Below are positions 4,236-40,158 of a stretch of 41,574 bases of DNA, one piece after another. Made by a program: the position numbers and the translations under genes. Within the stretch, counting starts at the first letter, position 1, and each line of letters starts with the position of its first letter. Source of the stretch: Nemertoderma westbladi (taxonomy: Eukaryota; Animalia; Xenacoelomorpha); NCBI GenBank assembly GCA_032718475.1, contig JAUCBJ010007591.1, forward strand, positions 1-41,574, written 5' to 3'. The notes beneath the pieces were generated by a model that ran no database searches, was not told the DNA's origin, and saw nothing but the letters and a program-made list of their open reading frames with translations.

Positions 4236-4720
4236 AGGGGAAACTGGGCGCAAATCCCATCTTAGCGAATCAATATCCCGCCTCCAAATAGGGGGGGAAA
4301 CTGGACGCAATAAAATTTTTCCCTATCCAGGGGAAATTCGACGCAAATAACAACTGATTATTCTCGAAAATAAAACTGTAACCTGTTCTATTGTGATTAG
4401 TTTATGGTTTTGGTTAAAATAACGTGCCACTGTAACCTGCTCCTTTTCCTAAATTGAGAATTTAACATTGAGGCGGGATATTAATTCGCCAAGGCGGGTT
4501 TTGCGTCCAGTTCCCCCCCCCCCCCCCCCCTGTCTCCCCACCTCAATGTTAAATTCTCAATTTAGGGAAATGAGCAGGTTACAGTGTGGTACGTTATTTT
4601 AACCAAAACAATAAACTAAATGCAATAGAGTACAATAGTTTATTTTTTTGAGTAATCAGCTGTTATTTACGTCGAATTTCCCCTGGAGAGGGATGAATTT
4701 TTATTGCGTCCAGTTTCCCT
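4236..4720. mobile_element. Nested MITE-like pair: a plus copy (4290-4530) inside a minus copy (4236-4285 plus 4537-4720)
   Basis: TIR GGGGAAACTGGACGCAA...TTGCGTCCAGTTCCCC. The outer pieces are reverse complements of the same family and join at CCCGCCTC/CCCACCTC. Confidence 0.75.
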
Positions 4721-10000: not shown

Positions 10001-10150
10001 AAAGGGCAAGCACAGATTGGCTGCAGTCTGAGGATGCAAAGATTCCTACTATATCATCTCCGCTAGATACTTTAGTGGCATTGTGGAAGGTTTCTCTTCT
10101 GTACCAGAGTGAAGTACCTCCAGCACCTCTAACTCGGTTTGGGTTGCACA

Positions 10151-11098
10151 TTAACTGATAGTATATACACATTCAAACTTGTTATGTAGATTTGGCAGTA
10201 GTTCCTTGGCCTCAAGTGCATCGAGCCAATGTTCCTGTACAGCGAATACATCAGTTTCTTCCAATAACTGTGAAATTTTATCAGAGCTAGAATGGAATCC
10301 CCGGCAATTGAAACTCCCAGTCCAGAGGTGAAAGTGATTGCAGTAGTCATTACTTGTATCACATAATGAACCTGATTGCTGGATTGGAGTGTTAAAGACG
10401 TTGCTTATAGGGCTGCCTCTGGAAATGACTGTGTGGTTTACGTTGGTACAGACCAGTCTGTATGTATGACTAGATGTTTGTTTCCCTGTGAATTCATGCT
10501 GATGTCTATTGGCACGGCTGTGTGTGATCCATTTGCAACACCGAACTCCATCAGACCAGAAAGAGTCACTGCAGACAGTGTCATGATTAAACATATCGAC
10601 TGTGATCCTTATACTCACAGTCCTTCCTTGTGTGCGAATTGGCTTCACTCGATAAATATCAACATTTTTCGCGACTAGATAATCCTCAATGTCCATTGGG
10701 TTGTACTGTCTTGGTATGCCAGTTACATATAAGTATGTGTATAGATGGTGGAGGGTTGATTGTGTTGTGTTACCTTGGCGTCTATGGCCATTATTGATAT
10801 ATGGCCTTTGGGCCTGATGTTGCTGATGTGTTTGTTTTCGGAAGTGGTTAGCTCTGATTTGAGTCGCAAAGGTGTTCGGCGGGTTATGAGAATGACCTGC
10901 ACGATGTGCTCCGCTAATTTGTTTGTTGTTATTGATTTTCTGATTTGCCAGTGTATCTCTAATGTTGTTCGTAGGATCATGATCGATGTCATTCCCTGCT
11001 ATATCATTGTCTGCATCACTCAAGGTTATATAGCTTGTGGAAGAATTTGATGGTGTCTCAGAGTTGGTTTCACAGTTGTCCCACTTATTAGGCACCAT
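10151..11098 (-). pseudogene. LINE ORF1 C-terminal RRM-like domain reading in frame into the APE endonuclease
   Basis: LYVTGIP...DIEDYL...SIRITV...FWSDGVRC, then WTGSFNCRG...QEHWL in the same ORF. Confidence 0.8.
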
Positions 11099-11786
11099 GC
11101 TGGAGCTCTATCGACTGTTACCAGTAAGTTCCGATAAGCAAGCATACCCATTGCTGATGAGTATAGATGATGCTGACTTTGACTTAGCGCAGTATGCATC
11201 ATTAGTGCCTTCCACATTTGGTTTGAAGGCGTTCCTTGCCTTTGGCTTAGTCCATTTATTAGTTTTATTAATCGGTTGGCTAATGGGGGTATCGTTTGTA
11301 ACTTCTTCATCACAAGTGGAGTAAACATCGTTTGATAACATGTGGTTTTTATGTGCCATACAGTGTTGGACTATGTGTTATTCAGTTGGTCCTGCAAAAC
11401 AATTCATGCATGCCTCTCTTGGTACAATTCAACCTTTAGGTTAGTGATATCCTGTTTGAGAGCATCATTTTATGTCTCTACTTTACACAATCTGGACTGG
11501 ATTAGTTCGACAGCTTGTGTTAAGTCTAATTTGAGTTGGTCGTATCCAGAGCTAGATGATCCCGTCACAGTGATTGGTAACAATCGCTTTCTACAGATCT
11601 CATGGAACGTTCCATCTTTCATGCAGGAGAGAAGTTCATATATATCTACAGCAAGTTCTTTAATAGAGTTCCTAGAAGAGAATCCATAGAAGACACCTTG
11701 TGTAGGATTCATTAGTTGCTTGACATCGGTAAAAAGAGCATCACGTAGGTTGGATAGGGTGATGGTACTCTCTTTGCCTAATTCCT

Positions 11787-12090
11787 AAGCCTAAGCTTGA
11801 CACTAGAACAAAATTGCCTCCGCTTTGCAGGACATTGCTTTCGCCGTGAGGACCAGCCAGTGCATAATCTTGTACTTTGGCAGCCTCATGGAGTGAATAA
11901 GCATGGTGGACAGCCCATGACTTTCTTGAGACGCATCTTAAAGGACACTGGCCTTGAAGATGCGGATGATCTAGCAAATGTCATGGGTGATAGGGAGTTG
12001 TGGCGGTGCAATTTTGTTGACAAGCCGGCACAGCATTCTTAAAAATGCAGCTGCAATGCAGCATGCCGATCCTAGTAGTAGTAGTAGTAG
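11787..12090 (+). mobile_element. 5'-truncated RTE insertion with (TAG)n tail, inside the LINE
   Basis: TSD (G)CCTAATTCCT at 11776-11786 and 12090-12100. Removing the insert restores the host frame KTLKELG-KESTITL. Confidence 0.92.
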
Positions 12091-12267
12091 CCTAATTCCT
12101 TCAGAGTCTTTTTCTTAGTGTCATTCAGTAGCCTGGAGAGGTCAAACACCTTGTAGGATGGAAATTTGTACGATGGTTGGTAGTTGGCTCTCACATGAGC
12201 TGCGGAGATTTGTGGGTGTGGATGAACTTTGACTCTCTGTGTATCTATTCCTACTTCTGTGGTTGTC

Positions 12268-13338
12268 TCAAAAGGGATTTTTGTATTTGACATCCATGAG
12301 TATCCCTTTAATCCAAGAACGAGCAGATTCTGATTGTAGAAGATTGTCAGGTATACAGGACTTATGATGGGCCAGTGCAGCTGCATAAAGGCATATAAAA
12401 TTTCCACAGTCAAAGTGATTATCCTGAAGAGGAAAGTTGAATATCCGACTGGAATCGATACATCTCCACTTTACATGCTTGCTAGTAGTGGAGCAGTCAT
12501 GCTTTTTGTAATGATTATCCATGTTTTTAAATACATTGCATAATCTCTGAGTGATAATGTTTGGGGTACTATTCCCCAGTGGGCATAGTTTGCATATAGT
12601 CTTTGTCTGGACGTTAATAACATGCAATACATGATGTGAGTTCGAACATTCAGGAACAATAATAAACTCTATGGGGACTGATCTCTGAAATTTGATTAGG
12701 AAATAGCTTCTAGCTATGTATTTAGCTGCTGCAGCTTTATTGTAATTATGGTTAAGAAGATTCTGGGAAAGCTCATCGCTTATCCATACGACATTTTGCT
12801 GGCTGTGCTCTAACATCCAGCAGAAGGCATTCACAGCACCGTTATGTAGCCAATTCTTACCTTCTAATGAGCGTAATTCAATGTCAGTTGGTTGTGAGAC
12901 CCCATAGTAGAAGTCCTCAGTTCTAGAGGTATGAATGTTATAGGCTATAGTGTCAATTTGCTGATATATTTCTGCATTGGATGGTGGTTTGCTTGATTTC
13001 CCGGGAATAACACAGACATCATTCCCAGAGGGATTTAATGCATCAGACCAGACATTTTGGTGACTTACTATAGTGGATGTAGGTTGTGCTTCACTATTGA
13101 AGGTAATCAGATCAGCCGGTTTGTTGATCTGAATGCTGTCCCTTTCTTCCCATGTGCCATCATCTAAGAGATCATCAACAACAACTTTGTTGATGTCGAT
13201 AGCGTTTGGGGAAACAAGGATATTATCCCCGGGACATACGCTTACTGTTGGAGTGATATTTTCCATGGGACGTACAGTTACAATAGGAGTGATAATTTCC
13301 TGGCTGTGGGAGTGATATTTACCCCAGAACATACACAA
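12268..13338 (-). CDS. Ulp1/SENP-like C48 cysteine protease domain of the LINE
   Basis: WLHNGAVNAF, IIVP..SNSHHVL and QDNHFDCGNFI motifs. The expected catalytic Asp position reads LCPLG. Confidence 0.75.
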   Translation of the reverse strand: MCMFWGKYHSHSQEIITPIVTVRPMENITPTVSVCPGDNILVSPNAIDINKVVVDDLLDDGTWEERDSIQINKPADLITFNSEAQPTSTIVSHQNVWSDALNPSGNDVCVIPGKSSKPPSNAEIYQQIDTIAYNIHTSRTEDFYYGVSQPTDIELRSLEGKNWLHNGAVNAFCWMLEHSQQNVVWISDELSQNLLNHNYNKAAAAKYIARSYFLIKFQRSVPIEFIIVPECSNSHHVLHVINVQTKTICKLCPLGNSTPNIITQRLCNVFKNMDNHYKKHDCSTTSKHVKWRCIDSSRIFNFPLQDNHFDCGNFICLYAAALAHHKSCIPDNLLQSESARSWIKGILMDVKYKNPF

Positions 13339-13399
13339 TTTACTGTAGTATTGTCAGACCTTGTGAGGCTGCCATTGTAAGAACTGTCAACTGTATAGT

Positions 13400-22835: not shown

Positions 22836-23206
22836 GGGCGATCTTTTATTGGTTACAAAGTACAAAATACCCCAGGGATACTTTCTTTAGAGCTAACTTT
22901 CTTGGCCTCTCAGCCTGTTATGAGGGCACATTTAGTTCATTGGCGTATTTTGTTGTAAAGAGTAAAGGTAGGCTTTATCACTAATAATAGCAATAGCCCT
23001 ATTATCCACCAGAAAGAGGGACGTGTTTGCATACACAACGAGATGGGCTATTAAGTAAAACCTTTGGACACCAGACTTCCATTTATTTGATGGTGTGTTC
23101 ATGGTAAATTCGCACAATTATCTGCTAATTCAAAAGTTATTATTAACGGTGGAATTAATTATCGTTATAATATTAATTGTATTTAATATAATATTGTACT
23201 TTTACA

Positions 23207-24549
23207 ATGGGTGGAGGTTTTCTACGATTTGATATGATCCTGTTTTTATCTATATGTTCATTAATTATCTCTTGCCATTCGCTCATACGAGATGATACAG
23301 GGGACTTTGATGATAAAGCTAAAACAGCGTCGTTGAATGCCTCTCACCACGACTATTGTATCCTTGGAGCTGGACCTGCAGGTCTGCAAATGGCCTACTT
23401 TCTAAAATCGTCCAACAGAGATTACGTTGTTATTGAAAGAAATAACATGAGCGGCTCTTATTACACCAAATTCCCCAGACATCGAACCCTAATAAGCATT
23501 AACAAGCTGTACACCGGACAAGCTAACAAACGATTTAACGAGCGCCACGACTGGAATAGTTTACTGAGTGACAACGACGACCTAGTATTCGGGAAATACA
23601 CAGAACAAATGTTTCCCCAAGCTGATCACCTTATCACCTACCTCAATGAGTACGCCAATACCTTGAAACTGAACATTGATTACAACACCGAGGTAACCTA
23701 TGTATCTAGATTCAAGGACGATAATGCAGCCAATGTTGAAACATTTATTGCTTTCACAAAAACCCAAAGAGTGTATACTTGCAATAAATTCATTGTAGCC
23801 ACTGGATGGGCTTTGCCACACGATGGGGGTTTTAAGGAAAAATTTATCTTGGGGTATGAAGACATGGACATGGATGTTGCACAGTTCCGGAACAAACGGG
23901 TCCTTATTATTGGCAAGGGGAATAGCGCGTTCGAGACAGCCAATCATATCAGAGATGTTGCAGCTGCTATAACAATGGTTTCTAAGAGACGCCCCGTATT
24001 AGCTTGGCAATCCCACTACGTAGGTGATATTCGAGCGATAAATGCTGAGTTCTTTGATCTCTACCAGTTAAAATCTTTAAATATTGTAGCGCAAAGAGAT
24101 TTTAAAGACATAAAATTTGTTGTAAACAATAAAACCAATAAAATCTCGTTGGAAAAAGACCTTGTTGAAGCTGATGTCGTTCCTGTCAATGAATTCGATA
24201 AAGTTATCCGTTGCATCGGATTCAAATGGGATAACAGGATCTTCGGGTCTCGAGTTGCCCCTGGCAACGCGTTTCCAACCTCGGAGAAGTTTCCGAAAAT
24301 CGGACAGGACTTCCAAAGTCGGACGCCCGGGTTGTACTTCATTGGGACTATCGCTCACTCTCTGGACTATAAACTCTCCGCGGGGGGCTTTCTTCACGGT
24401 TACCGCTACACAGCCCGGTCTGTCCACAATATTCTAGAACAACGTTACCATGGAGTACAATGGCCGTCAAAGACTGTTCCTATGTATTCTATGGAAACCT
24501 ACATGATGAAGCGAGTTTCAGAAATGCCGGGACCATACCAGATGTTTAG
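23207..24549 (+). CDS. FOXRED2: FAD-dependent oxidoreductase domain-containing protein 2-like, exon 1
   Basis: Signal peptide, GAGPAG, FPRHRTLISINK, RHDWNSLLS, GKGNSAFE, HYVGDIRAIN and SAGGFLHGYRYT. Donor AG/GTAAAA, phase 2. Confidence 0.92.
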
Positions 24550-25119
24550 GTAAAACATTAACTACTTACATAATTGGTGAAAAGTAGAACTTCCCAGCGA
24601 TATGATCCGAGAGTATTTATGTACCGAACGTGCGCAGCGAGGGAGGTTACAATAAATACACTTCTAGGGCCAAAAGCACTGAATAGTACACTTTCCACAC
24701 AATAATTTTCATAATTTTGTTACATTATAGACTGTATCTCAACGTAGCGGCGTTCTGAATACTTAATTTTTATCTTTAATATTTTAATGTTTAGGACTAT
24801 TATTGAAATTCATATCCTATTTATGCAATTATTAATTAATTTCATTTACTGTAACAACTGTACGGGAAATAATGTTACACATAGCATAAGCATACAATGG
24901 CTATCATCAATGGATAATTTTTTGCAAGACATGTTCTAGAAGTTTATTGTTTCTAAGTGATTAATTTATTAGTTAGCTGTGTTACGAAATTACCACCAGA
25001 ACGTTGATAATTTGACATGTAATAAATTATGTTATTTGTTTGGAACCAACTCAACTATTTTATACAGTATCCCAAACATATCCTTACAAATCTGATTTAA
25101 TATATTTTGTCCTTATTAG

Positions 25120-25220
25120 TTTTCTTGGAGAGGTATTTGTTGTAAACAAAGATTCAGGAACGATGACACACTTTGCCGAATATCCATTAAGACTCTTACA
25201 TCGATTCCAAGAAATTACAG
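25120..25220 (+). CDS. FOXRED2: FOXRED2-like exon 2
   Basis: TTATTAG acceptor and AG/GTTGGT donor. Phase-compatible SFLGEVFVV...QEITG. Confidence 0.88.
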
Positions 25221-25890
25221 GTTGGTGTTGGTAGAGCTTCATTTATCATTCAACAAGATTTAATACCAGTGACACAGGCGAATACTGGAATTTTAACAAT
25301 TTCGGTTCAGTTTAACTTAGCCCCTTATTTCAGTTACAGTTTATCTACCGGTTAATATAAATTAAGTAGTGGAATCCCGTTTACTTTTATACATAGATAT
25401 ATAAGCGTTATGTTTATTAGTAAAAATTAAAACACTATAGGGAAGAGCTGCATGCTGATTGGTTACTTTCCTCTGTTACCCGGCAACATATAAGTTAAAT
25501 TTCATACTGATCATTTTTCCATGTTTCCAGAATGTTTGTGGTGTTTTCCCTTTGTTCTATATATTTTTTACTAAGATGCGCTGTGCGAGGTGTACATTTA
25601 GGATTACCTATTTAGGATAGTTAATAGGTTAAATTTCCTGCTTATAAATATTTTTACTGTGTTCCATCTAGTGTTTTCTTAATTCTCTTTTTCTCACCAA
25701 TCCTCTATCACGCTGGCTTGGTGCATAACAAAAATTGGGATAAATAATTTGATTGGAATGAAAGAACTGCCGATATAAAATTAATTTTCGTTAATTAATT
25801 GTATATTTTCATATTTTCATAATTTTAGTTTCAGTTTATTTCAATCATTTCAAATCGGTACTTAAATAATTCAGTTTTATTGTTATTCAG

Positions 25891-26077
25891 GATATCACAT
25901 GGGACCTTCTACAACAATGATAGTCCTTAATCTCGAGTATGGGAAGACATTTGGGGGTCCAGGAGCTGATGTTCTGAATACCAAACAGGTGCATGACCCT
26001 GCCCTCGCTCACACGGAAGATTTGCTGCACCCTGTCTGGTACTATTATTATACTCAACCTACAGCCCGCGATATGAG
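25891..26077 (+). CDS. FOXRED2: FOXRED2-like exon 3 (later exons not found in the window)
   Basis: TTCAG acceptor. LNLEYGKTFGGPG...LLHPVWYYY. Donor AG/GTGCGT, or an alternative GTAAGC at 26090. Confidence 0.88.
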
Positions 26078-26286
26078 GTGCGTCGCATTGTAAGCCCTCT
26101 GTACTTCACTTTTTGAAATATTTAATATAATATTTTTTTTTTACAATTTTACTTTCTAAAAAATTAGATATAAATATTCAATACATTATAGTAACGAAAT
26201 TTCGCATGTCTGAGTTTAGTCATTGATAAACTTTGAACGTTTAAGCTCAAGTCATTGCTATCTGGGTAATAGCAGTTCACGCCACG

Positions 26287-27430
26287 TGTAAAGGCTTTTG
26301 CGTAATTAGCCGGTTATTTTCCCCGTAAAGTACTCTGTAGTTAGTTTACTAGGCATAAAAGGGCCGTGTCCTTACTGTACTGGTGTTTTAGAGGACATAA
26401 AGATAATTTCTTCTGTAGGTGTACTTTAGAGGACATAATCCGCAATTTTGTGACGCAATAAGCCGGATACTCTTGAAAACAGTGTGGATACCATGACGAC
26501 GGCTAACAGCTGATATTGCCACGTCGAACATTTCTTTGTTCTTTGTTCTCTCTTTGTTCGGTCGACCAATCAGAGCGTTTTTTGACTCTGTGTTGGAGGT
26601 TGGATACAGAAACTCATGATTTCAGTGTATATGTTTTTGCCCAGAGCCTAAGAACACCGGCTTTTGGCACCTCCGTGTTTCAGTCTTTAGCTTAACATTA
26701 GTAGGCTTAATTATAGAACGTATATCTGTTATCTAATCTTACAAACCAAACCAATTCATACCTTAACATTACTGCTTTTGCTGTCGGTTATTCATTATAT
26801 TTGTTGATGAAATATTATATCGGAATACTGATCCATAATCAGACACCCCAATCTTCTTGATATACTAAAGGTTAGAGAGACCGGATACATATAACGATTG
26901 CGACTTACATTAAGTGGTTTGAAGTGTATCTAATGCTATTTCATAGGCCCGACATAAATTGTCTGTTGCTCTCTTTATATGTGACTAAAATTAGTGAAGG
27001 TCGGCAGATTAGTGTGCAGTATTGTGCAGCGTTGTGTATGATTGTAACTGATAACAAAGCATCTCCTAAATAATGCGCCATATACGTTAATCTATAGCCA
27101 TTCCGTTGTGTCTAGTTTAAGTCATAACTCTGTTTACATATTTAGAGCGCCACGTCCTAAAGGAACTGTTAATATTTCCCGAAAGTGAATAATATTTGTC
27201 AGAGATTATATATTACGATCAGTCGAATAATACAGTAGGCTTACACCTCAATCAAGTTAAGCTTCCGAATTCAGTCTCCCGGGTATATCCAGCGGGTGAA
27301 TGATTGCGCATAGACTGGCTTCGGCTAATGTAGTGTATCAAATACTCGTCATAGGCTAAAGACTGTCTATCATCTAAAAGACATCCCAATTTGGCAGGTT
27401 AAACTGTCAAAGGTCTTAAAAGCGCAAACA
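26287..27430 (+). repeat. 5' LTR (1144 bp)
   Basis: Starts TGTAAAGGCTTTTGCG and ends AAAAGCGCAAACA. Collinear homology with 38215-39386. Shared CCAATCAGAGCG box near 26566. Confidence 0.88.
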
Positions 27431-27441
27431 ATAACAGATAT
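27431..27441 (+). promoter_or_regulatory. Putative self-priming primer-binding site ATAACAGATAT
   Basis: Abuts the LTR end and is the exact reverse complement of 26722-26732. No TGG tRNA-type PBS is present here. Confidence 0.6.
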
Positions 27442-27713
27442 TGCTTCTGGATTGCGGCGTAAGCAATCAAGTCGAAAGTACCGGTCGACCGGAAACCTGT
27501 AGGCCTGAATGCCTGATCACCCGGACCGGTACTTACAGCAGTACAGGTACAGCAGTATTATTCGATTTTGATTATTATCTACCAGTAGGCCTTAATAATT
27601 AATCAGGGACTGCAGCCCTGGTTTTTTATTGAGATTTTACTTATTTCTGTCAAGTTTTATTTATTTGTAGGCCAGTATTGAGCAGAAGGCGTGTAAGCCT
27701 GCTCAGATTGTAC

Positions 27714-28290
27714 AGATAATTTGTAGGCTTGACTATTGTCGAACTGTTGTTAAGTCTGAACGTATTGCAGTGTGTGTAGAGCATCTGTCCGATAAAGTGC
27801 TAGTTAGGAACGTAGGGGCTTCAAATGCTGTGAGGTAAACCCCCTGTGAAAGAATAAGTCGTACTACTAGGTTAGAACGCATACTAACTAATCATTTCGG
27901 AGTCTGCATATACTGTAGTTTATTTAGGCTTGATAGTAGTCTGCCATCGTTTGGTCTGTACTTTATTTGTGTAGTCTGTACGGGTAGCGTATAACTTTAT
28001 TTAGATAATTTGTAGGCTGGATAGTTGTATGGCTGTTGTTGGGTTTGAGGAAATTTCGGTGTGTGTAGAGCACCTGTCCGATAAAGTGCTAGTTGGGAAC
28101 GTAGGGGCTTCAAGTGCTGTGAGGTAAACCCCCTGTGAAAGAATAAGTCGTACTACTAGGTTAGAACGCATACTAACTAATCATTTCGGAGTCTGCACAT
28201 ACCGTAGTTTGTTTGGGCCTGATAGTAGTCTGTCAGTATTTAGTCTGCATTTTGTTTGAGTAGTTTGTACGCGTAGCGTAATATTTATTA
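27714..28290 (+). ncRNA. Tandem 289-nt structured RNA element (2 copies) in the retrotransposon leader
   Basis: Long G-U-rich stem with compensatory changes around a 122-nt core that differs at only 3 positions. Confidence 0.7.
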
Positions 28291-29236
28291 TTCAGAGTTT
28301 ATGCGATTATTCGCAACATTCATATCCCCAATTTTATTCCTACAGTAATTGTGCTTGTTATACATACCGTTATAGTTAAACTAACCCCGGTACTACATCA
28401 GGGCTGCTCGGCGTAGGTAAAGACTGGAGATTTTATGCTTTGGTCACTCCGGCAGATACCGTGGTTCTTTTAGCTGTTCAAGTATTTTTAACTACTAATT
28501 ATTTGTTGTACAAGTACTTGTACCTAATTTAGGGTTTAGTGTACAGTACTTTCCGAAGGTGATTAGTGTGTAGGCAGTATATTTGTGTTGTAAAGTGGTT
28601 AATAGGCACGTTGGTTCTGGTAGACCGCGGTAATTAACTTCTGGGTAGGAACACTCCGTGATACATAACGTAGTACCTATAGCGATACGGTTATAGGTCG
28701 TCAGACGGTGGTATTTTCCTATCTGGACAATGCAGTATATTTACTACTACTTATTATTTTCAAATACAGTAGTAACCTGTCCGTTGTAATAACCAGATAT
28801 TCTAACCCTTTGTTAGGCTGGTTTGTAGATTCCCTGTAAAATTACCCTAAAAATTCGTATTTGTAATTTTTGTGTTTATTTAGAGATTGTAATCTCACCC
28901 CGATTGTACGTAATTTGTAGTAATAAGTAACTTAGGTAAATTAGAATTATTTGTTTTAGTGTCCAACAAGTAGCACTTCACTGAGAGCGCACAGCTTCTG
29001 TGTAGTGACTCCCCCCAGAAATAATAACATTTATTTCAAACATTGACAAAAACCCATTTCAACGGGTATATATATATTATAAATCAACTCAAACGATTTA
29101 TAAATAGTAGGCCTGCCATACAACAATTAGGTCTCAATATCAGTTGGACTACTGCTTAAATAACGGTAATAAAGTAAGTTAAAGTAACCAAGTAACCCTT
29201 AAAATTCAGAAATTCAATTATTCTAAAATAATTGAC

Positions 29237-29484
29237 ATACCGGTATTTACAATAGGCTTATTATATTTATTTCTATAAATTTTAGGCTGAAATCATACCG
29301 GTATTCTGTAATTAATTCTAGTCTGTAATTATACTTATATATATACATTATAAGTGTAAGCTGTATACCGGTATTCACGATAGGCCTATTATATATATAT
29401 AAATTTAGGCTGAAATCATACCGGTATTCTGTAATTAATTATAGTTACTAATAATACTTATATATACTATAAGCATACCGGTAT
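29237..29484 (+). repeat. AT-rich tandem region with five ATACCGGTAT palindromes
   Basis: Copies start at 29237, 29295, 29365, 29418 and 29475. Higher-order repeat of about 123 bp. Confidence 0.85.
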
Positions 29485-29619
29485 TCTAATATTATATATA
29501 TATCACGCTACACTGAGTAGCAGTATCGGTAATTAATTAATAGGCTAGCAGTTACTGCTGAATTACTAGACTTGCTTAGACTGTAATATAGCAGTAGGCA
29601 TTCAACTGTGCAAACAAAC

Positions 29620-32600
29620 ATGTCTGATACTAAGCAGAACCTGTCGGACAGTTTATTAGATGTAACTATCTGCGACTCAGATAGGGATGTAGAACCGTCT
29701 AGACCTAAGTTCAGTTCACCTCCCACTGTGAGAAAGGTCATCCCTCCAGTAGTAATATCAGAACCTAGGCTGGTCCAACATCGTAGGTCTATCATAGGCA
29801 CTCGAGCTCAGGTCAAGCGGGACCAAGAAGCAGCGGAACAGCAACAACCCGCGAGCCAAGAATTTATTCCTCAGCGGCCCGACAGCTCCAGTAGTGAGGA
29901 TACTGTAGAGCTGACACCCGAGCGCGGAGCAAAGATGACGGATGCGGTTTATTCGGATCCCCTTCTCATCCTTCCTACAGCCGTACTCACTAGGTTATTG
30001 ATTGCGGTGGAAGAACACCAGATTGATTGGGCGAGAAATAAGCGATCGACTAAAGATAGTTATGCGGGATACACAAGGGAAGAACTGAAGTCTATTGTCG
30101 AGTCGCAATGGAACTTCCCCGGACCCGGACTCCCGTTTGATTTATCGGAAGCTGCCTGGGAAGACATACACCGGATGGGAGTAGCCAAGGAAACCATCGA
30201 TCCAGCTGTGTGGAAGAGGTCCGCAGCCGGATACGCACAGGGATTCTTCAGCTCTATAGAGCGATTAAAAGAACAACTGTTTCAACAACCCCAAGGACCT
30301 CAAGAGCAGGGACAACTGCTTTATCAAGTTAGAGAAAGAATTCTGCGAATCAGGCTAATCTTATCGGCCTTTGAGGAGGCTTCTAAAAGAAGACAAGACA
30401 CGTCGTTGCAAGTTGCCGTAAAGACTTGGTTTCAACGGGTGAGTCTCCAGGTTCAAGGAACGGCTCAGTGGAAAGCTCAGCTGGAGGAGCGCTCAACCCA
30501 TGGAGAATCAACAGAGGCTACTTTTTCCCAAGTGGAAAGTGAAGCGACAGCAGAGAAACCGCATAAGAGGGATGCCATTGACATCTATCTGTCAGACTAT
30601 CAGCGTTTTTTAGGAGATGAAGAGTTGAGGAGAAGGTTAGATGGACTCAGCCCTAATAGTGAAGGAACCCAGCGTGTGTTGGACGCCATCGATGTGGAGA
30701 TGAGAGCTGCGAACCAAGCCAGATTTGATGAACGCCTTCGCATCACTAGAGTCCAAGAAGAACAAGTGAAGAAAAAACGTATAGAAGATAGAAAGATAGC
30801 AGCAGCAGCAGTGGCAGTGGCAGAAGCGGAAAGAAAAGCGGCAGAAGTGGATAGAAAAGCTGCAGAGGCAGCGGCAGAGGCAAAAGCGGCAGCGGCAGAA
30901 GCGGAAAGAAAGGCGGCCGAAGCGGAAAGAAAAATAGCAGTGGCAGAAGCAGAACGGAGAGCGGCTGAAGAAACCACCCAATTAGAATTGGAAAACATTC
31001 AGGAGAATCAAGACTGCATAAATAAACAGTTAACAGCTAGTAATATGCAGATGATGAATCGATCTACTCCCAAAAGACAGGGATATACATCATCTGAGGA
31101 AGGCGATACCACCGATACTGAAGGCAAAGAAAATAGCTCTCGTCTAAGCAGACGTAGAAGAACATCCCACCGTCAGAAATTGCCTGATTTGCCTCCAGCT
31201 GTTAGAAGGCAACTAAATAACACCAACTTAGGTAGTACAGAACCCACAGACCAAATAATTACAATAGAAAGACTCCCTACTATAGTAGATGAGCCTGAAA
31301 TAATTAGGCCTGTTCCCGAAGCCACCCTTTCGGTGGCAGAGACACCTGTACTCCCTGAACCTACCTCTAAATTCCCTCTGCACAGCACCAAGCTACCTGT
31401 GCCCAGCAGAACAGCCCATGAGACAGTTCATGTCCTGGACTCCGAGCGAAATATTCATGATTTGTCGCCCGTTGTCCCTCGTCCGCCCGCTACAACGTTG
31501 GCGACTCCCGCTTCGGCGGTCGAATGGGTGGATGAGAGACGAAGGGGGATGGATCTCCTGCTCGGGCAGATGCAGGAGACCGTTCAGCAATTCAAGGGCA
31601 CAGTGAGGGAAAGTAGGTTAGAGTTGCAAGAAGTGCAGCAAAATATCGCGTTAGAACGCGATAAATTAGTAAATACACAAAAGGGTATACCACCACCCTC
31701 GGTAATGATGTGTCAACCTGTTAGGTCTGAAGTATCTCATGCGCAAGGTGTGGAGCCTACACGCATATATACTGCTAGCGAAGTAGAAACTCCTATAGTG
31801 AACCCTATTAAGGGTAATTATAGACCTGTTGATAATGATATTCCTTATAGACCTGATCATAATCCGAGAAATTTATATACCGATAACTCGATATTAAATA
31901 ACACGATGGCCCAAGAAAGTTTTACGCGTCAAATGGCTAGAACCGAAGCCCGGCAAGCGGTAAAGGTGGGAGAGATAGTCAAGTTCAATGGAGATGAGAT
32001 GAAATGGTTACCTTTTAATGAATATTATAAAGATAACATACAGAACTCTGTACTATCTAATGGAGAGAAACTTAGATTCCTCATCGAGTGCTTGGAAGGA
32101 TCTCCCAAGTTAATGGCGTTAAAGTTTATTGGACATCCAGACGGATTAAGACAAGTTTGGAATACACTAAACATCAGGTATGGTAATAGGAATAACATAG
32201 CTAAATATTTGTATGCAAAATTAGTAGCGCCCCGAAAGTTCATTAGCAGCGGGATAATAGAGTTTTCCGATGAGATTCAAGAGATCTGTAGACAATTAGA
32301 TTGGTTAGGTAAGTCTCATGAATATCAGAGTTCTATGGTTATTGGAGCCGTGGCTTCTACTTTACCGAAGGGTGGAGTAGGTACACGCTGGGATAAGAAA
32401 GTGTTATATATGATGGAACAACAACGACGAGACCCTACCATGGCTGATCTCATGTCATTCTTAGATGGAGAAGTGAAATTACAGCTCCTAAAACTGTCCA
32501 GAGAGAAGACACCGGAAAACAAGGTAAGTGAGAAACCCATCTCTAGGAGAAAGGTAACACCAGTGTGTTATACAGACGACGGCGAAAGCCAGACTTCTCA

Positions 32601-35559
32601 AGGAGAGGATAGCGGGAAAGACACTGACAGATCTTATTATGTCATTAAAATGCCTAAAGATCAGGTAAGTAAATTCAAGTCTCGAACCAATGACAGGAGA
32701 GAACAGGTAAGAAAAACTCCTCCTACGTCTCCTAAGAGAATTCAGGTGAGAAAGCCCGAAGAAAAAACAAGTGTGCACAATGTTACTCAAAGTAAGGTAA
32801 GTAACATCAAACCGAAATGTGCGCTATGTGACGGGACCCATCGCTTGAATATGTGTGATGAATTCCTAAAGAAATCATTAACTGAGAGACGGGAAGTCAT
32901 GTGGGATAAGCGGTTGTGTTATAATTGCCTCAGACAAGGACACCAATGGCGAACCTGTTACTCCAACACAAGGTGTGCAAAGTGCGGTGCGAAACATCAT
33001 ATCTTGTTGCACACTGAATTCGAGCGAAATAGTCCGAGTCAGGTAAGTGATTCCGAACTACATGTCCAATTCAGTGATGTGAACGACACGGATCAATCTG
33101 AGATGGAAGGATTCTATACGGACGAGTTCTCCGACGAAAACGAATCCTGTTACATGATAAATACCGCAGTGTATCGAGCACTCACTTATGAAAAAGATAC
33201 AGACATTGACCTCACTCTAACTACTTCTGATCGACAACCATCTTGGAAAGCGCCAACTTCCAATGTAGGGATCCGAGAATTTCCTGTGGTACAGGTAAGG
33301 GTCCACGGACCAAAAAGGAGTTATGTAGTGAACGCCCTCCTTGACTCCGGTAGTACGGGAACATTCATCGACAAAGAGCTAGCCGAAGACATATTTGCTG
33401 GACAACCCAAGTTCCGAACCAAGCTAAACATGTCAGGAATTATGCAGGTTTGGAAATCTACAGTAACAGCGGATTATTATGTAGGTGCGTTGTCCACCCC
33501 CCAGGACGAACTAGGAGAACATAGCATAAGGTCAGTGAAAATGGTGGCAATAAAGAACTTCGCTACCACCCAAGTGGAACCTTATAACTGGGACGAGGAC
33601 GATTTCACCCAGCAGCTGGAAATACCTAGATTCGACACCGATTACCCTGGAGTGCAAATACTCATCGGTCAAAACGCGCATGAAGCGCTCGAGACATTGG
33701 AAAAACGGCCCGCTCAACCGCAACCATTACAACCTTATGCGATAAGAACTAGAGTGGGTTGGTACTTTACTGGCCCTTCCCGTAGAACTCTCATGGAAAG
33801 ATTACCGAAAGATCAGGTATATCAAGTGCGAGAATGGGAAGTTGAGAACAGTGAGTTAGACGATCCAACTGAGGGAACTCCATACTCCTCAGACAACGAC
33901 GATATACATCAACTCTTCGATGAGGAGAATGCCATCGATCTCCTTAAGGAAAATGAGACTTGGCAAAACCAAGTAAACTTATGTCAACTCCTTCTTCCAT
34001 CAGATCGAGACGACTATAACGACGAGCTTAATGAAGTCATTGAACGTTATAATGCCAAGACTCGGGATGAACACGCCGTGAGATTCTTTACTCAAGAGGC
34101 TGTAGAGCCCAACTCCTACGATAAAGCCCTATCGGTGGAGGAAGAAAGAGCCAAGCAGATCCAAGCGACAACTACTCGTTTTCTTAAAGATCAAGGTAGA
34201 TATGAGATCGGTCTTCCTTTCCGAAAGCGAGAACCAAAGTTCATTAACAACAGACCCTTGGCGGAGAAAAGAATTGCTCAACTACATCGACGCCTTACGG
34301 CAAATTCTTCAGCTAAAGAAATGTATCAAACGCAGTTGAAGAAGTTTATTAGCAAGGGATATGCGGAGCTAGTACCGGAAGAAACACCTATAACTGAGAG
34401 AACGTATTATTTAACTCACCATTACGTTCCCAAACCCGGTAAACCCCATGAAGTACGAGTGGTGTTTGACGGCTCCGCCCTTTATATGGGCCAATCTCTT
34501 AATTCTGAATTGTTACCCGGACCCAACTTACTCCAATCCTTGTTGGGAATACTATTAAGATTAAGACAATATTCCATTGCTTTCGCCTCAGATATAGAAG
34601 GTATGTTCTTACAAGTCAAAGCGCTGGATAGGGATCGAGATAGCCTACGATTTCTGTGGTGGCCTGAAGGAGACCTCAACAAGAAACCGGTGGAGTACTG
34701 GATGACCATCCAAGCCTTTGGGATAATCTCGAGTCCTTCAAACGCCTGTTCCGTGGTGCGCACCACTGCGGATGACAACCGAGACGCCTTCTCTAAAGAG
34801 GTGATCGACAATATCAAACGAGACATCTACATGGACGATAATCTAAAGTCCCTTCCATCAGTCGAAGAAGCCATTGAGGTCGCTAAAGAAACGGTAGAAT
34901 GCTTAAAGAAAGGTGGATTTCGATTAACTAAATTCACTAGCAACTCCCGTGAGTTTCTGGAGTCGATCCCGGTAGAAGATCGAGGAGCAAAAGACCTAGA
35001 TCTAATAAAGGATGATCTCCCAGAAACTAAGACCCTTGGTTTGAAATGGGACACAGAAAGATATATCCTGTTTTTCCAACTAAAACAGCGAGATAATCCA
35101 GTTCGGACTAAACGGATTTGTTTAAGTATCCTGAGCACTTATTTCGATCCATTGGGATTTATTAGCCCAGTTATATTGATTGCTCGGAGTTTAGTACAAC
35201 AAATGTGGCTTGAAAACCACTCATGGGACGATCCACTTAAGGGAGAGTTATTAAAGAAGTGGATGAAATGGGAAGATTCTCTACCAGCCATCGAAAACTT
35301 TATAATTTCCCGTTCATATTTTGGTCATGTTCTCCCTACGTATTCCTATCAACTCCATGTGTTTGGAGACGCCAGCGATATGGGAATAGGTATAGTAGCC
35401 TACCTAAGGGTGGAAACTCCGGACGGAATCAAAGTCGCCTTGGTTACCTCTAAGGCATTGATAAACAACAAGTTGAAAGTTCCTCGAGCGGAGTTAAAAG
35501 CGGCTCTATATGGATCTCAGATCACTCTATTAAATAGCATCCCAGATCTGTATGCATGA
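29620..35559 (+). CDS. BEL/Pao Gag-protease-RT-(partial RNase H) polyprotein, 1979 aa from the first ATG
   Basis: DUF1759-like KFNGDEMKW...LNIRYGN, three Cys/His knuckles (CALCDGTH, CYNCLRQGH, CAKCGAKHH), LLDSGS, RVVFDGS, YMDD, HVFGDAS and PRAEL. Ends before the rest of RNase H and integrase. Confidence 0.95.
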   Translation: MSDTKQNLSDSLLDVTICDSDRDVEPSRPKFSSPPTVRKVIPPVVISEPRLVQHRRSIIGTRAQVKRDQEAAEQQQPASQEFIPQRPDSSSSEDTVELTPERGAKMTDAVYSDPLLILPTAVLTRLLIAVEEHQIDWARNKRSTKDSYAGYTREELKSIVESQWNFPGPGLPFDLSEAAWEDIHRMGVAKETIDPAVWKRSAAGYAQGFFSSIERLKEQLFQQPQGPQEQGQLLYQVRERILRIRLILSAFEEASKRRQDTSLQVAVKTWFQRVSLQVQGTAQWKAQLEERSTHGESTEATFSQVESEATAEKPHKRDAIDIYLSDYQRFLGDEELRRRLDGLSPNSEGTQRVLDAIDVEMRAANQARFDERLRITRVQEEQVKKKRIEDRKIAAAAVAVAEAERKAAEVDRKAAEAAAEAKAAAAEAERKAAEAERKIAVAEAERRAAEETTQLELENIQENQDCINKQLTASNMQMMNRSTPKRQGYTSSEEGDTTDTEGKENSSRLSRRRRTSHRQKLPDLPPAVRRQLNNTNLGSTEPTDQIITIERLPTIVDEPEIIRPVPEATLSVAETPVLPEPTSKFPLHSTKLPVPSRTAHETVHVLDSERNIHDLSPVVPRPPATTLATPASAVEWVDERRRGMDLLLGQMQETVQQFKGTVRESRLELQEVQQNIALERDKLVNTQKGIPPPSVMMCQPVRSEVSHAQGVEPTRIYTASEVETPIVNPIKGNYRPVDNDIPYRPDHNPRNLYTDNSILNNTMAQESFTRQMARTEARQAVKVGEIVKFNGDEMKWLPFNEYYKDNIQNSVLSNGEKLRFLIECLEGSPKLMALKFIGHPDGLRQVWNTLNIRYGNRNNIAKYLYAKLVAPRKFISSGIIEFSDEIQEICRQLDWLGKSHEYQSSMVIGAVASTLPKGGVGTRWDKKVLYMMEQQRRDPTMADLMSFLDGEVKLQLLKLSREKTPENKVSEKPISRRKVTPVCYTDDGESQTSQGEDSGKDTDRSYYVIKMPKDQVSKFKSRTNDRREQVRKTPPTSPKRIQVRKPEEKTSVHNVTQSKVSNIKPKCALCDGTHRLNMCDEFLKKSLTERREVMWDKRLCYNCLRQGHQWRTCYSNTRCAKCGAKHHILLHTEFERNSPSQVSDSELHVQFSDVNDTDQSEMEGFYTDEFSDENESCYMINTAVYRALTYEKDTDIDLTLTTSDRQPSWKAPTSNVGIREFPVVQVRVHGPKRSYVVNALLDSGSTGTFIDKELAEDIFAGQPKFRTKLNMSGIMQVWKSTVTADYYVGALSTPQDELGEHSIRSVKMVAIKNFATTQVEPYNWDEDDFTQQLEIPRFDTDYPGVQILIGQNAHEALETLEKRPAQPQPLQPYAIRTRVGWYFTGPSRRTLMERLPKDQVYQVREWEVENSELDDPTEGTPYSSDNDDIHQLFDEENAIDLLKENETWQNQVNLCQLLLPSDRDDYNDELNEVIERYNAKTRDEHAVRFFTQEAVEPNSYDKALSVEEERAKQIQATTTRFLKDQGRYEIGLPFRKREPKFINNRPLAEKRIAQLHRRLTANSSAKEMYQTQLKKFISKGYAELVPEETPITERTYYLTHHYVPKPGKPHEVRVVFDGSALYMGQSLNSELLPGPNLLQSLLGILLRLRQYSIAFASDIEGMFLQVKALDRDRDSLRFLWWPEGDLNKKPVEYWMTIQAFGIISSPSNACSVVRTTADDNRDAFSKEVIDNIKRDIYMDDNLKSLPSVEEAIEVAKETVECLKKGGFRLTKFTSNSREFLESIPVEDRGAKDLDLIKDDLPETKTLGLKWDTERYILFFQLKQRDNPVRTKRICLSILSTYFDPLGFISPVILIARSLVQQMWLENHSWDDPLKGELLKKWMKWEDSLPAIENFIISRSYFGHVLPTYSYQLHVFGDASDMGIGIVAYLRVETPDGIKVALVTSKALINNKLKVPRAELKAALYGSQITLLNSIPDLYA

Positions 35560-36097
35560 GAATTACCCTAATTCTACTGCTAGCTTTCCATAATGTCACC
35601 ATAGCAACAACCACGCTAGAAATAGAAAAGAGTTAAAAGAGCAATAGAAAGCTTATCCCATTGAATAGCATACGGAATAAATAGCACACTGCTAGTATCC
35701 AGGGATACATAATAATAATGTGGCATTCTGGAAGGCACTTGACTAACGGACAAATGGCCCGAATGTGTACAATTTGTGACAGTTGTGTGGAATTTGTGCG
35801 TTTATAGGTGAATGTTACTACTAAAGTGTGTTTACAGTAGCGAGTCGCAGTTGTGAAAGTTACCCTGCCTCTGTAGCAAGAACCTGAAGTAATTCTGAGC
35901 CCTTGGGACGGACAGTGGAGTGACTCGCGCTGGTTATTGTTGTCGTTGTGTAGCTCCTACGTTGGCGAGAGACACAGCGGCGACAGTACATTAGTGCTGA
36001 GGGGCTTGCGCTGTCCGGGGGCATGGAGGGGGAGGCAGTGACGACCGCTAGCCTAAATTATGATTAATTATAATATCGATAAACTCATATAGCAGCT

Positions 36098-38136
36098 ATG
36101 ACTGAGTTGATAGAGGATGATCTTGGTATCATGGAGCGATATTCCCTACCCTTGCAAGCGTTTGTTGATAGTTTAATAAGCGGCGACGCTAGTCAACCTA
36201 CTACAGAGGACGATGGCCGTTATATCGAACCGCCAATGTCAAAGGAACAGCTCATGCGTGAATTGGACTATAGAAAATTCACCGCTCGCTATATGCATCG
36301 TAAGAGTACGTATATCGACTTCTTAACCACTGGTCATCCTATCGATTTACACGATACGGACGATGTAGACACCAAAAGGGAAATGATCCTATTTAAATAT
36401 CATGCCCAGCGGAGTCAGAACGAAAAACTTAGAATCGAACACGAAAAATTCTATTCGAAATCGACTCAAAATAGAAGACGTTGAAGAACCGGATAAACGC
36501 AGTGACTTCAACGTATATTTGGAATTCTTGAGAGAAGTATGTAAAACTGGAGAAAGATCACCCACGTTTCCTCTACAAGACATGCGTCTTTGGCATTATT
36601 GCGATGAATTCCCTAGACCCAACCAACAAACGGAAAGACATAAACATCCGCGGAGACGTTGCGCTAAACACAGTTTTACTCGCTATACTTACGGGAGTTT
36701 CGAGCGAAACTTGTTCGACGTATCACCTACGCTCGCTCGACTCAAACAATCCTTAAATAAACCGATGATCAGAGTTCCGGAATACTCGGTCAGACCTCCT
36801 CATTCCCTAGTGAGACCTCAAACTCTTGATCCTAATAGTATAACAGATCCTCCTGAACTGTACTCACTGTTCACAGATCTCGTGTTACCCGAACAATTAA
36901 TCGGTGGCACTCCGGTAGTGGGCTCTTTAGATATTCGCCCATCTTACCTAGCCGGATTGGGACGCGGACATTTAATATCGCCGTTTAACCCGTATAATCG
37001 TCCCGGTCTAACCCCGATACAACCCGTCACCGAAGTCGAGGAGAGCGTTGTACGAAACGCGTTAGACACTATTCGGCAAAAGATCGGAAAAGGAACTTAC
37101 GATTGTTTGGAGAAACGTAAATTGCAGCAGCAAGTCCAAGCGGTAAAATAATTAGCTTTACCTCAGTTCGATCGGGAAATCCAGAATCTCGAAGAAGATA
37201 TCGAACTTGGACAAACCTACTCTCTACAAGAGTATTTGGACGAACGCTTCCAACGACAAGCGGAGGAAAATCAGCTCGAGGAGAAACACATCGAAATGGA
37301 TGAGAGAGAAGAAGCAGCTTTAGCCCAACCAGAAGCTCAAATCCTTATGACTGATCTCTATTCCAAAACCATCATTCATCCCTCGATGGTTCCCCATATC
37401 GGAGACAAACTCTTCGCCACGGTACAACCCCAACCGGTTGATATCAACCTAAGATCTCAAGATCTTATCGCTAATGCACCTATGTTACAATGTCCGCCAA
37501 TCGAGGCCACTCATATCGACCGTATACTCGTTGAACCTCCGGACAATCGAGCGGATCTTGTCCGTCGTATGGTACACAAGGTCAACCTATGCGCTAGACC
37601 TTTACCGAACTCATTTTATGGGATCAAAGACCACCCTTATTATGTCAATTTAACTCAATATTATATGGTGAAACCGGAGATCCTACATACAGTTTAAAGT
37701 TTCTACCATTGATAAATCACGCGGTGACTTGTTCATAAACTCGCATCCCGACTTACAAGAAGTTCATAGACAACCATATGAATATAAAGCCAGAGAACGC
37801 GAGTTGGAAAGAACCATCAAACCGAGGAAATTTCTCACTACTCACAGTCAACCTACCGCTCTCGTGCAAACGACCCATCAGGGACCAGTAAGAGCTGCTG
37901 TCTTGAAACGCACTCTAAAGGTTGTTCGACCTCATTCCACTGAGGTTGATATCGATCAACCGGGTACCTCGACTGGCGGATACACCGCCCATAACCCTAA
38001 ACCTTCCGATGCAATTGTATTGTACCCCTCACCCAGGAGTTATAGCCCTCCTAGTAAAGTGGCTCGCCCCAAAGAGAAAATTTCTCTTGCTAGCCTCAAA
38101 AAACTTCGTAAACGCCGTTCACGTAAGAAGGAGTAA
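36098..38136 (+). pseudogene. Additional 3' ORF of the element (about 680 aa), broken by two frameshifts and one stop
   Basis: ORFs 36098, 36402, 37236 and 37729 join via an extra A in GAAAAATT (about 36445), an in-frame TAA at 37149 and a shift at 37672-37695. Confidence 0.7.
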
Positions 38137-38205
38137 TTGTTTAGAGTATTTTTATATTTTAGAAACTGTGATTTTTTATATTTTATAGAATTAAATCCCA
38201 TTTTC

Positions 38206-38214
38206 TGGGAGCGG
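38206..38214 (+). promoter_or_regulatory. Polypurine-tract-like plus-strand primer (TGGGAGCGG)
   Basis: Immediately precedes the TGT of the 3' LTR. Confidence 0.7.
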
Positions 38215-39386
38215 TGTAAAAGCTTTTGCGGACATAACAAGTCATTTTTCCCCACAATGTACCGTGTAGGTGCTTTAAGCGGACATAACAAGTCATTTTT
38301 GCCACAATGCGCCTAATACTCTAAAAGACTGGAGCTCAGATGACGAAATCTGTCAGCTGATTTTCTGTAAACGTGGAGCCTCTTTGTTCTGCTCAGCCAA
38401 TCAGAGCGATTTTCACTTTAACTTGAACAAGGGCCTATGTAAAACCGCGCAATGCATTACGGTCTTTGTTTACCTTTCTGAGCGAGAGAACTGCTTGGAA
38501 ATCTTCTGTACTTCTGATTTTGGAAGTTTCAGACTTTGCCTAAACATCTGATAGCTTTGATTACAAGGACGTAATCTATTATCTGCAATGCATTACTGCA
38601 ACGCATTACTGACAGCAAATCAACTCGGAACCTACCGACATACTGACTCATTGAACTCTCATTTATAACTAGTATGTAACACATACTGATTGTTCACCGC
38701 ATTATTTTACTTCTGTTATTAATTGTTGTTATATGGATATATATTGTTGATATATTTGGATAATACTGATGAATACTCATAAAACCACCCCCCATCTTCT
38801 TGATTACTGAAGGTTAGAGGAACAGGTTACCGGTAGCAACTGCGACTTACATTATAGTGGTTTTTGTGTGAATTAAATGCTATTTCATAATCCCTACATG
38901 TGTCAGTTGCGATCTTCCTTATATATGATCAAATTCAGTGACGGTCGGCAGATCAGTGTGCAGTAGTGTGAAGTAGTGTGAAGTCGTGTGAAGTAGTGTG
39001 ACAGATAATAAAGCATCTCCTAAAGAATGCACTATTTACGAAACTCATTAGCCATCTAGTTGTGATTAGTATAAGTCATAACTCTGTTTTTATACTTAAA
39101 GCGCCGCGTCCTAAAGGAACTGTTAATATTTCCCCGAAAGTAAATATATTTGTCAGAGATTATATAGTAACGATCAATGGAATAATACAGTAGGTCTGCA
39201 CCGCAATAACTTCAAAGCACCCGAATCCAGTCTCCCTTAACTGTGGGTGAAAGGTCGCTCACAGACTGGCTTCGGTGGATGTAACTTCAGTACATTAAAT
39301 AATTGGTCTAGGCTAAAGTCGATTTATAAACAAGAAGACAACTAAAATTGGCAGGTTAAACTGCTAAAGGTCTAAAAGCGCGAACA
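38215..39386 (+). repeat. 3' LTR (1172 bp)
   Basis: Starts TGTAAAAGCTTTTGCG and ends AAAAGCGCGAACA, followed by the TSD. Confidence 0.88.
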
Positions 39387-39391
39387 CCACG

Positions 39392-40158
39392 CAGGCTCGA
39401 ATTTTGTTCTTCCCACTTTAGACTTGTTCCAAATCCTGGAATACGACTAGAAAGTAATGGCGAAGGCATCAAATTCCTTTTCTATTTAGGCAAAAAGGAA
39501 CCAAACTACAGACTATTGATAATTACTCCTGTTATTACTACTGCTGTAATTCGTAATCCAAGTGATGATCCACAACCGAGCGATGATAATTATACCCTCG
39601 TCACCTATTGTCGTCCGAAGCGTGATCCTCCACAGAAACAGGCGGTGGCGGCTCGTGTGAGAAGAGGCGCGAACAATTCCAATGCGCCTTACTTTGTTCA
39701 AGGTTCCTCCAATGGTACGGGGGGGTTCTGTACGGTTCAACCTTCTCGTAAACCCTTCCTTACAGGATGTCATCCTGATTTTGATCCCGCAGTTATCCTC
39801 GATCATGTAAAAAACTCTCTTGGGTTTGCTGACGTCACCTGCTACAGCATATCAAAGGCAGAGTCTCCCGTTCGGTCGTTTTTAATAACGTGTTCAGAGG
39901 ATCAACATTCTCTACTCTTGGATCCAAGTATCTGGCCACTCTATTCGAGAATTCGCGACTTTGAAACAAGGCCCCGCGCCACTAGGCCCATGCGCGTCGC
40001 AACGGGATTTAATACAGCTGTTCCAGACTCTACTGCTACAACTGCGGGTAGCCCTCCTGTGGGAAACAGTAACGCCTAATCGCTGATGCGAACCGGTACG
40101 CGGCTTTGGACACTGGAACCCAGGGTACCGAAACAAGCGTCGTGGCCGGAGAGTCAGT
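39392..40158 (+). mobile_element. LINE ORF1 remnant (RRM-like) plus possible start of ORF2; probable target of the BEL insertion
   Basis: FLTGCHP...SFLITC...LLDPSIWP in ORF 39516-40079, then an FGHWN endonuclease-like start near 40105. Confidence 0.65.

Follow-up and report, generated by a model that had tools for sequence, protein, structure and literature searches.

A BEL/Pao-derived retrotransposon of Nemertoderma westbladi with a candidate self-primer in its LTR

According to the ICTV profile, a host tRNA primes the reverse transcription of BEL/Pao elements via an 18-nt site, and their replication is poorly understood (PMC8742986). Priming with the element's own RNA is described for Tf1/sushi and for Tj1 (PMC4600332). 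In Tf1, the primer site is bound by the 11 bases at the start of the RNA, and RNase H separates base 11 from base 12 (PMC7175516); the priming structure consists of three duplexes (bioRxiv 2022.12.06.519325). In addition, self-priming has been predicted for the plant elements Tcn1 (gypsy) and TAR (copia) (PMC6317226), and bivalve TRIMs are reported to have no clear primer site (PMC6934838).

For BEL/Pao elements, self-priming was not found among the titles and abstract openings searched, in which subscription papers and Repbase reports are thinly covered. The excerpts of four BEL/Pao surveys (PMC554778, PMC3118150, PMC6238403, PMC8220671) contain no passage on a priming mechanism under the terms looked up, and BEL/Pao self-priming does not appear in the passages of PMC3601003 and PMC13524379.

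The element considered here lies in a stretch of 41,574 nt from the xenacoelomorph Nemertoderma westbladi (contig JAUCBJ010007591.1), called the window in the following. A preliminary description of this DNA had proposed a self-priming BEL/Pao retrotransposon. The feature at the LTR edge is real, and judged by its sequence it is probably Tf1-like self-priming outside the groups in which such priming is described. To the reading that this lineage primes its minus-strand DNA with its own RNA in the manner of Tf1 we assign a probability of about 0.68; the copy in the window has neither an integrase nor a tRNA-type site.

Anatomy, class and surroundings of the element

The LTR element is 13.1 kb long and is bounded on both sides by the target-site duplication CCACG (26282..26286 on the left, the identical 5-mer at 39387..39391 on the right). 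Both LTRs are read on the plus strand and were delimited by their mutual homology, the 5' LTR with 1144 nt (26287..27430) and the 3' LTR, which is of a diverged type, with 1172 nt (38215..39386). The 5' LTR end at 27430, from which the preliminary description had started, is confirmed by homology to the 3' LTR end at 39386, by TG...CA termini in both LTRs and by the CCACG flanks. A leader of 2.2 kb separates the 5' LTR from an ORF of 1979 aa (29620..35559, plus strand) for Gag, protease, RT and RNase H, which matches Pfam PF03564 (E 1.9e-10) and PF05380 (E 2.9e-32), contains three zinc knuckles and the motifs LDSGS and YMDD, and terminates within RNase H. A tblastn search for an integrase with the C-terminal 560 aa of three relatives found nothing below E 0.45 in the window. 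One or more broken accessory reading frames follow at about 36098..38136 (plus strand), for which Pfam and Atlas searches gave no match, and a polypurine tract is located at 38207..38214 (plus strand). About 550 nt of non-coding DNA (35520-36100) lie between the end of pol within RNase H and the accessory frame. The leader contains a tandem pair of 289-nt copies that are 87% alike (27714-28289) and more short repeats at 29237-29539.

Identity to the RT-RNase H region is 40-43% in the best-matching of 243 BEL/Pao-type proteins. The best of these matches have the same Pfam domains, and the named proteins among them come from marine invertebrates. By its proteins, that is a BEL/Pao Gag capsid domain, zinc knuckles and a BEL/Pao-related protease, RT and RNase H, the element is BEL/Pao-derived, and its polypurine tract and LTR lengths, within the 0.2-1.2 kb of the group, agree with this. 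Yet it is no textbook member: the integrase expected after RNase H is missing from this defective copy, and so is the 18-nt tRNA primer site. Nor does it belong to Tf1/sushi, given its BEL/Pao domains, the absent integrase and the absence of chromovirus proteins. It is not placed in Sinbad, Suzu or Sailor, the tree being built without a named reference.

The two LTRs are about 75% alike over the 3' 665 columns and less so upstream, where similarity occurs in blocks. Such diverged LTRs stand against a perfect target-site duplication and an open 6-kb ORF, a combination for which a subfamily hybrid, gene conversion or an assembly join may account; we infer that two subfamily types were probably joined in this insertion. 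Contigs aligned to the window show that the family is highly repeated in one organism (three runs), and relatives of it occur at low depth in a single run from another organism. Among 40 of the 316 differences in this alignment, none falls on the motif or the primer site discussed below, a result with no bearing on covariation. In a contig of run X4 the LTR start directly follows LTR sequence of the 3' type (joint 27026 / 26287), which suggests a family copy nested inside the LTR of another copy. Close relatives were not found: a search of viral contigs gave 0 matches, and the LTR motif occurs 0 times in the genome contigs searched. A search of Rfam over 26200-39500 gave one chance-level match and no ribozyme, and a tRNA gene search of the window gave none.

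The DNA just upstream (23192-26080) carries the exons of a gene for a flavoprotein oxidoreductase (Pfam Pyr_redox_3), which we take to be FOXRED2-like; the element may sit inside an intron of this gene. Another transposon may be present on the minus strand at 8556-13353, where there are several ORFs, one of which encodes a Ulp1 protease domain (PF02902). Furthermore, a SINE- or MITE-like dispersed repeat of about 300 nt is present in at least five copies on both strands (3111, 11775, 15401, 21052, 40216), and a second, inverted-repeat family occurs at 684-929, 4237-4728 and 15724. The right flank (39360-40079) contains an open frame of 239 codons without a Pfam match, which presumably resembles ORF1 of a non-LTR element.

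Pairing at the LTR edge and competing folds

As the preliminary description had stated, the first 11 nt past the 5' LTR (27431..27441, plus strand), the candidate primer-binding position, which has no TGG, are the exact reverse complement of 26722..26732 (plus strand) within the LTR, the candidate self-primer. The duplex halts exactly at the LTR boundary, C26733 facing A27430, so that, as in Tf1-type elements, an LTR segment of 11 nt pairs with the site and its 3' end meets the LTR edge. When the LTR was shuffled 20,000 times with its dinucleotides preserved, 22 shuffles reached a pairing of at least 11 nt at offset 0, 52 at offsets 0-3 and 72 at offsets 0-5. Of 10,769 internal 11-mers just three are complementary to a stretch of the LTR, this site among them, and 1 of 300 internal pseudo-sites equalled the contiguous 11-nt match in the widened test described in the next section.

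The sole TGG within 28 nt past the 5' LTR lies at +17. The tRNA end that it implies has 0 matches in the excerpted table of published metazoan tRNA 3' 12-mers (PMC13524379), which holds less than the full tRNA set and stands outside the host's own tRNAs; as a positive control, the complement of the site in three related elements (L031, L034, L039) is found there exactly, as tRNA-Tyr. Within this scope the earlier claim that a tRNA primer site is missing holds. The last seven letters of the motif, to be sure, resemble what we take to be a tRNA-Asn anticodon loop, which favours a primer drawn from the host's RNAs, be it an unusual tRNA end, a tRNA half or another small RNA, with the LTR match due to chance and the motif kept for a helix inside the LTR. 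The same explanation can draw on the description of BEL/Pao as tRNA-primed (PMC8742986), on half-tRNA priming in copia lineages (PMC6317226), on the weak placement of the window in the tree and on the intra-LTR helix as a reason for the conservation of the motif. We nevertheless regard it as unlikely, given a chance of about 0.001-0.004 at a fixed position, a match that hits the one motif that is both structured and conserved close to where the RNA probably begins, and a signature shared by all nearest testable relatives.

The motif lies within a block common to both LTRs (1 of 500 shuffles reaches the score) with its counterpart at 38573-38582, and the post-LTR site agrees with the 5' LTR version at both positions at which the LTR motifs differ. 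This shared block had been put forward in favour of self-priming. The block itself is borne out, but it does not count as independent support, because a helix inside the LTR could explain its conservation, which hints at a motif that is transcribed and structured. The second partner of the motif was recognised at 27050..27088 (plus strand) by folding and by comparison of the two LTRs: 27050-56 pairs with 26727-33 (probability 0.97) and 27080-88 with 26717-25 (0.88) in folds that include upstream bases. In the 3' LTR the second partner (39002-39010) overlaps the only AATAAA of that LTR (39007), at a place where the 5' LTR reads AACAAA (27053). At the equivalent positions the 3' LTR likewise has complementary letters, each helix part showing a single matched change, a comparison that carries no statistical control, and in folds of the 3' LTR the helix reaches 0.05-0.6, its second part 0.01 or less.

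With extensions included, the two partners are similar in energy (-18.8 kcal/mol for the second partner, -22.3 kcal/mol for the primer duplex). This similarity, together with the overlap of the internal partner with the AATAAA/AACAAA position, would suit a purely regulatory pairing, in which the motif pairs by turns with the poly(A)-signal region and with the leader to control processing of the 3' end, packaging or dimerisation, without being cut into a primer. Such a role would leave the element without a primer and the coincidence of the duplex end with the LTR edge unaccounted for; moreover, an 11-nt pairing is kept at the same place in relatives, for which the switch arrangement is not shown. 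A purely regulatory role thus appears quite unlikely.

The imperfect extension of the duplex beyond its core does exist and lowers the energy from -11.3 kcal/mol for the core alone to -22.3 kcal/mol; when the RNA is folded globally, it is reduced to 26716-21 paired with 27442-47. Three further pairings between U5 and the leader, said to flank the site, are present as words and do not form in folds: CGCAA/TTGCG has a probability of 0.0-0.01 and competes with a predicted leader hairpin at 27450..27468 (plus strand), CTTA/TAAG has a probability of 0.0, and GCAGGTT is held in a local U5 hairpin, while most of the family depth differs at 27498 in its proposed partner AACCTGT. A U5 hairpin at 27390..27411 (plus strand) is kept in both LTRs with a probability of 0.96-0.97. 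A further helix, reminiscent of the Tf1 'pretzel', is predicted beside the primer site between 27304..27309 (plus strand) and the U5 end at 27422-27427 (0.87-0.92 in the 5' LTR, 0.0 in the 3' LTR); a corresponding helix on the leader side was not found in the folds, so that just one side helix is predicted.

Which partner of the motif wins appears to be set by the RNA start, the modelled primer duplex being favoured only for starts near 26710-26722. Folded to 27480, RNAs that begin at 26710-26722 form it with a probability of 0.81-0.85, those that begin at 26684-26700 with one of 0.16-0.21. Another set of folds gives 0.47-0.65 for 26722-27520 and 0.0 both for 26722-27900 and for starts at 26600-26682, and long-range folds of this kind are weak evidence in both directions. 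The RNA start could lie upstream of the motif, in view of a conserved Inr-like TCAGT (26680) and CCAAT (26566), or downstream of it, in view of a TATA-like word at 26712.

Related elements with and without tRNA-type sites

BEL/Pao loci were collected from genome contigs by alignment search (39) and from metagenomes (9, with a best-segment identity of 34-49%), 48 in total. The 39 animal-type loci (L010-L048) come from contigs that are labelled as parts of bacterial genomes or bins, a placement pointing to contamination with host DNA. The 29 loci of at least 5 kb were scanned and the 19 below 5 kb left out; a usable LTR end was present in 14 of the 29, leaving 15 without. Sorting by a TGG site preceded the pairing test (L010 and L014 joined later), tRNA-type meaning a TGG within 7 nt of the LTR end. 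Six of the 14 elements (L025, L027, L028, L031, L034, L039) are of tRNA type, with tRNA-Tyr, tRNA-Gly type or unassigned sites, and the other eight are not.

A first test of contiguous pairing at offsets 0-3 gave merely 4-8 nt in L012, L013, L018 and L019, the 8 nt of L018 and L019 lying immediately past a CAG acceptor. The test was widened after these results were known, to offsets 0-10 and to junctions of strong splice sites, and was applied in the same widened form to 300 internal pseudo-sites per element as controls. All eight relatives without a tRNA-type site then pair with their own LTR, over 11-12 nt in seven and 8 nt in one. The match is contiguous like that of the window in one of them (L012, 11 nt, 0/300 controls) and spans a predicted LTR splice junction in the other seven: L010, L014, L015, L018 and L019 with 11 nt (0/300 controls each), L035 with 12 nt (0/300) and L013 with 8 nt, one mismatch and two further pairs (7/300). 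The pairing offsets run from 0 to 8, and the LTR ends of L010, L014, L015 and L035 are inferred. The six tRNA-type elements reach 7 nt at most, and a 6-nt spliced match in L028 is equalled by 6 of 300 controls. Self-priming is better supported for this reason, since eight of eight relatives without a tRNA-type site are self-complementary there versus none of the six with one. The proposal of a self-priming BEL/Pao lineage thereby gains support from the relatives, but not from the U5-leader helices originally offered for it.

The predicted introns of the seven spliced relatives measure 77-1022 nt and have strong donors, and AATAAA lies within 20 nt of the acceptor in L015, L018, L019 and L035. 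The sister families L018 and L019 differ in two letters at the exon end, and the two primer-site letters opposite them have changed in step. Covariation in related families had been named as a check of the idea, and, as far as these relatives go, the pairing is kept with other letters in the eight of them, with matched changes in L018/L019; L015, L018 and L019 stem from a single assembly.

The element of the window might itself be spliced like most relatives. Removal of an intron from 26728 to 26870 or 27397 would leave a junction primer that pairs over 10 nt at offset 1 in either case; the longer intron would also delete the competing partner. The 27397 acceptor resembles those of L018/L019 and is present in both LTRs, and the stretch past the motif differs in length between copies. 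However, the 26728 donor is weak, falls below the strong-site filter and is missing from the 3' LTR, the 10-nt junction pairing is equalled in 71 of 500 shuffles and is shorter than the unspliced 11 nt, and AATAAA never follows 27397 in either LTR, unlike in L015, L018, L019 and L035. We therefore favour the unspliced form for this element, for which splicing seems very unlikely.

In quick maximum-likelihood trees of RT-RNase H, the branch that parts self-pairing from tRNA-type elements has a support of 94 and 85 (two trees), and the clustering of the self-pairing label was equalled in 0 of 500 label shuffles. The window forms a long basal branch of the self-pairing group (support 81-88), a weak position, as its grouping with the tRNA-type elements instead is not rejected (p-AU 0.14). 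The relatives would raise the prior for self-priming in the window, with a shared origin not proven.

Proposed route and comparison with known systems

In the proposed route, the observed pairing of the motif (26722-32) with 27431-41 places a 3' end at the LTR edge. Transcription would begin at about 26710-26722, so that the motif comes to lie at the RNA 5' end. The RNA would then fold back, the duplex being flanked by the U5 hairpin and the predicted 27304-09/27422-27 helix. By analogy with Tf1, RNase H would cut after 26732 and RT would extend from the cut across about 700 nt of U5 and R. More speculatively, upstream U3 bases might hold the motif on its partner in the poly(A)-signal region in the 3' LTR copy of the RNA. 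The copy in the window, whose RNase H is cut and which has no integrase, would depend on enzymes supplied by an intact copy of the family. In most relatives an equivalent 11-nt primer would be made by splicing out an LTR intron; the element of the window and L012 would carry it ready-made. Primer formation at a splice junction, if it occurs in the relatives, would be of a kind not met in the literature searched.

A wider reading is tentative: a broad branch of BEL/Pao elements of aquatic animals may have dropped tRNA priming in favour of spliced (seven of nine) or ready-made (window, L012) primers that are interconvertible, the primer of the window doubling as a switch. If true, an 11-nt primer from the element's own RNA would tie reverse transcription to splicing and let the lineage escape silencing by tRNA fragments, and the motif would be paired to the primer site when it lies at the 5' end of the RNA and to the poly(A)-signal region when it lies at the 3' end. 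The branch would represent a third superfamily on such a route, here in animals; it would account for BEL/Pao elements that lack a detectable primer site and alter the scores that they receive from annotation tools. Of the two forms, the contiguous one found in the window is the simplest to test.

Compared with Belpaoviridae, the element shares Gag PF03564, three zinc knuckles, PF05380, the order protease-RT-RNase H, a 5-bp target-site duplication, TG...CA LTRs and a polypurine tract. It differs by the absence of the 18-nt tRNA site, the integrase and part of RNase H, by its length of 13.1 kb (4.2-10 kb in the family), its 2.2-kb leader and its LTRs of about 75% likeness.

With plant Tcn1 (gypsy) and TAR/Houba/Osr-1 (copia) it has in common that self-priming is predicted from complementarity (PMC6317226). 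These elements have plant hosts and belong to other superfamilies, and no splice-built primer is mentioned in the excerpts of that source. As self-priming is predicted there in a second superfamily, copia (PMC6317226), a repeated origin is plausible, and an origin independent of Tf1 is a reasonable assumption for an element of a different superfamily.

Tf1/sushi elements are Ty3/gypsy chromoviruses, whereas the window encodes BEL/Pao proteins, and its R-U5 region of about 700 nt is a prediction, as is the one of two 'pretzel' side helices of Tf1 that it has, in the 5' LTR only. Its motif has a competing internal partner, many of its relatives seem to need splicing to obtain a primer, and its self-priming is predicted from sequence. 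Nevertheless, the likeness to Tf1/Tf2 (S. pombe), Tj1, Tosmo and Tf1/sushi in general extends to an 11-nt LTR segment that is complementary to the site just past the 5' LTR, to the absence of a tRNA site and to flanking LTR helices, which in the window are predicted. The Tf1 primer (PMC7175516) and the candidate primer of the window both have 11 bases, and the Tf1 primer site also starts with ATAAC (PMC11042837), which may be a coincidence.
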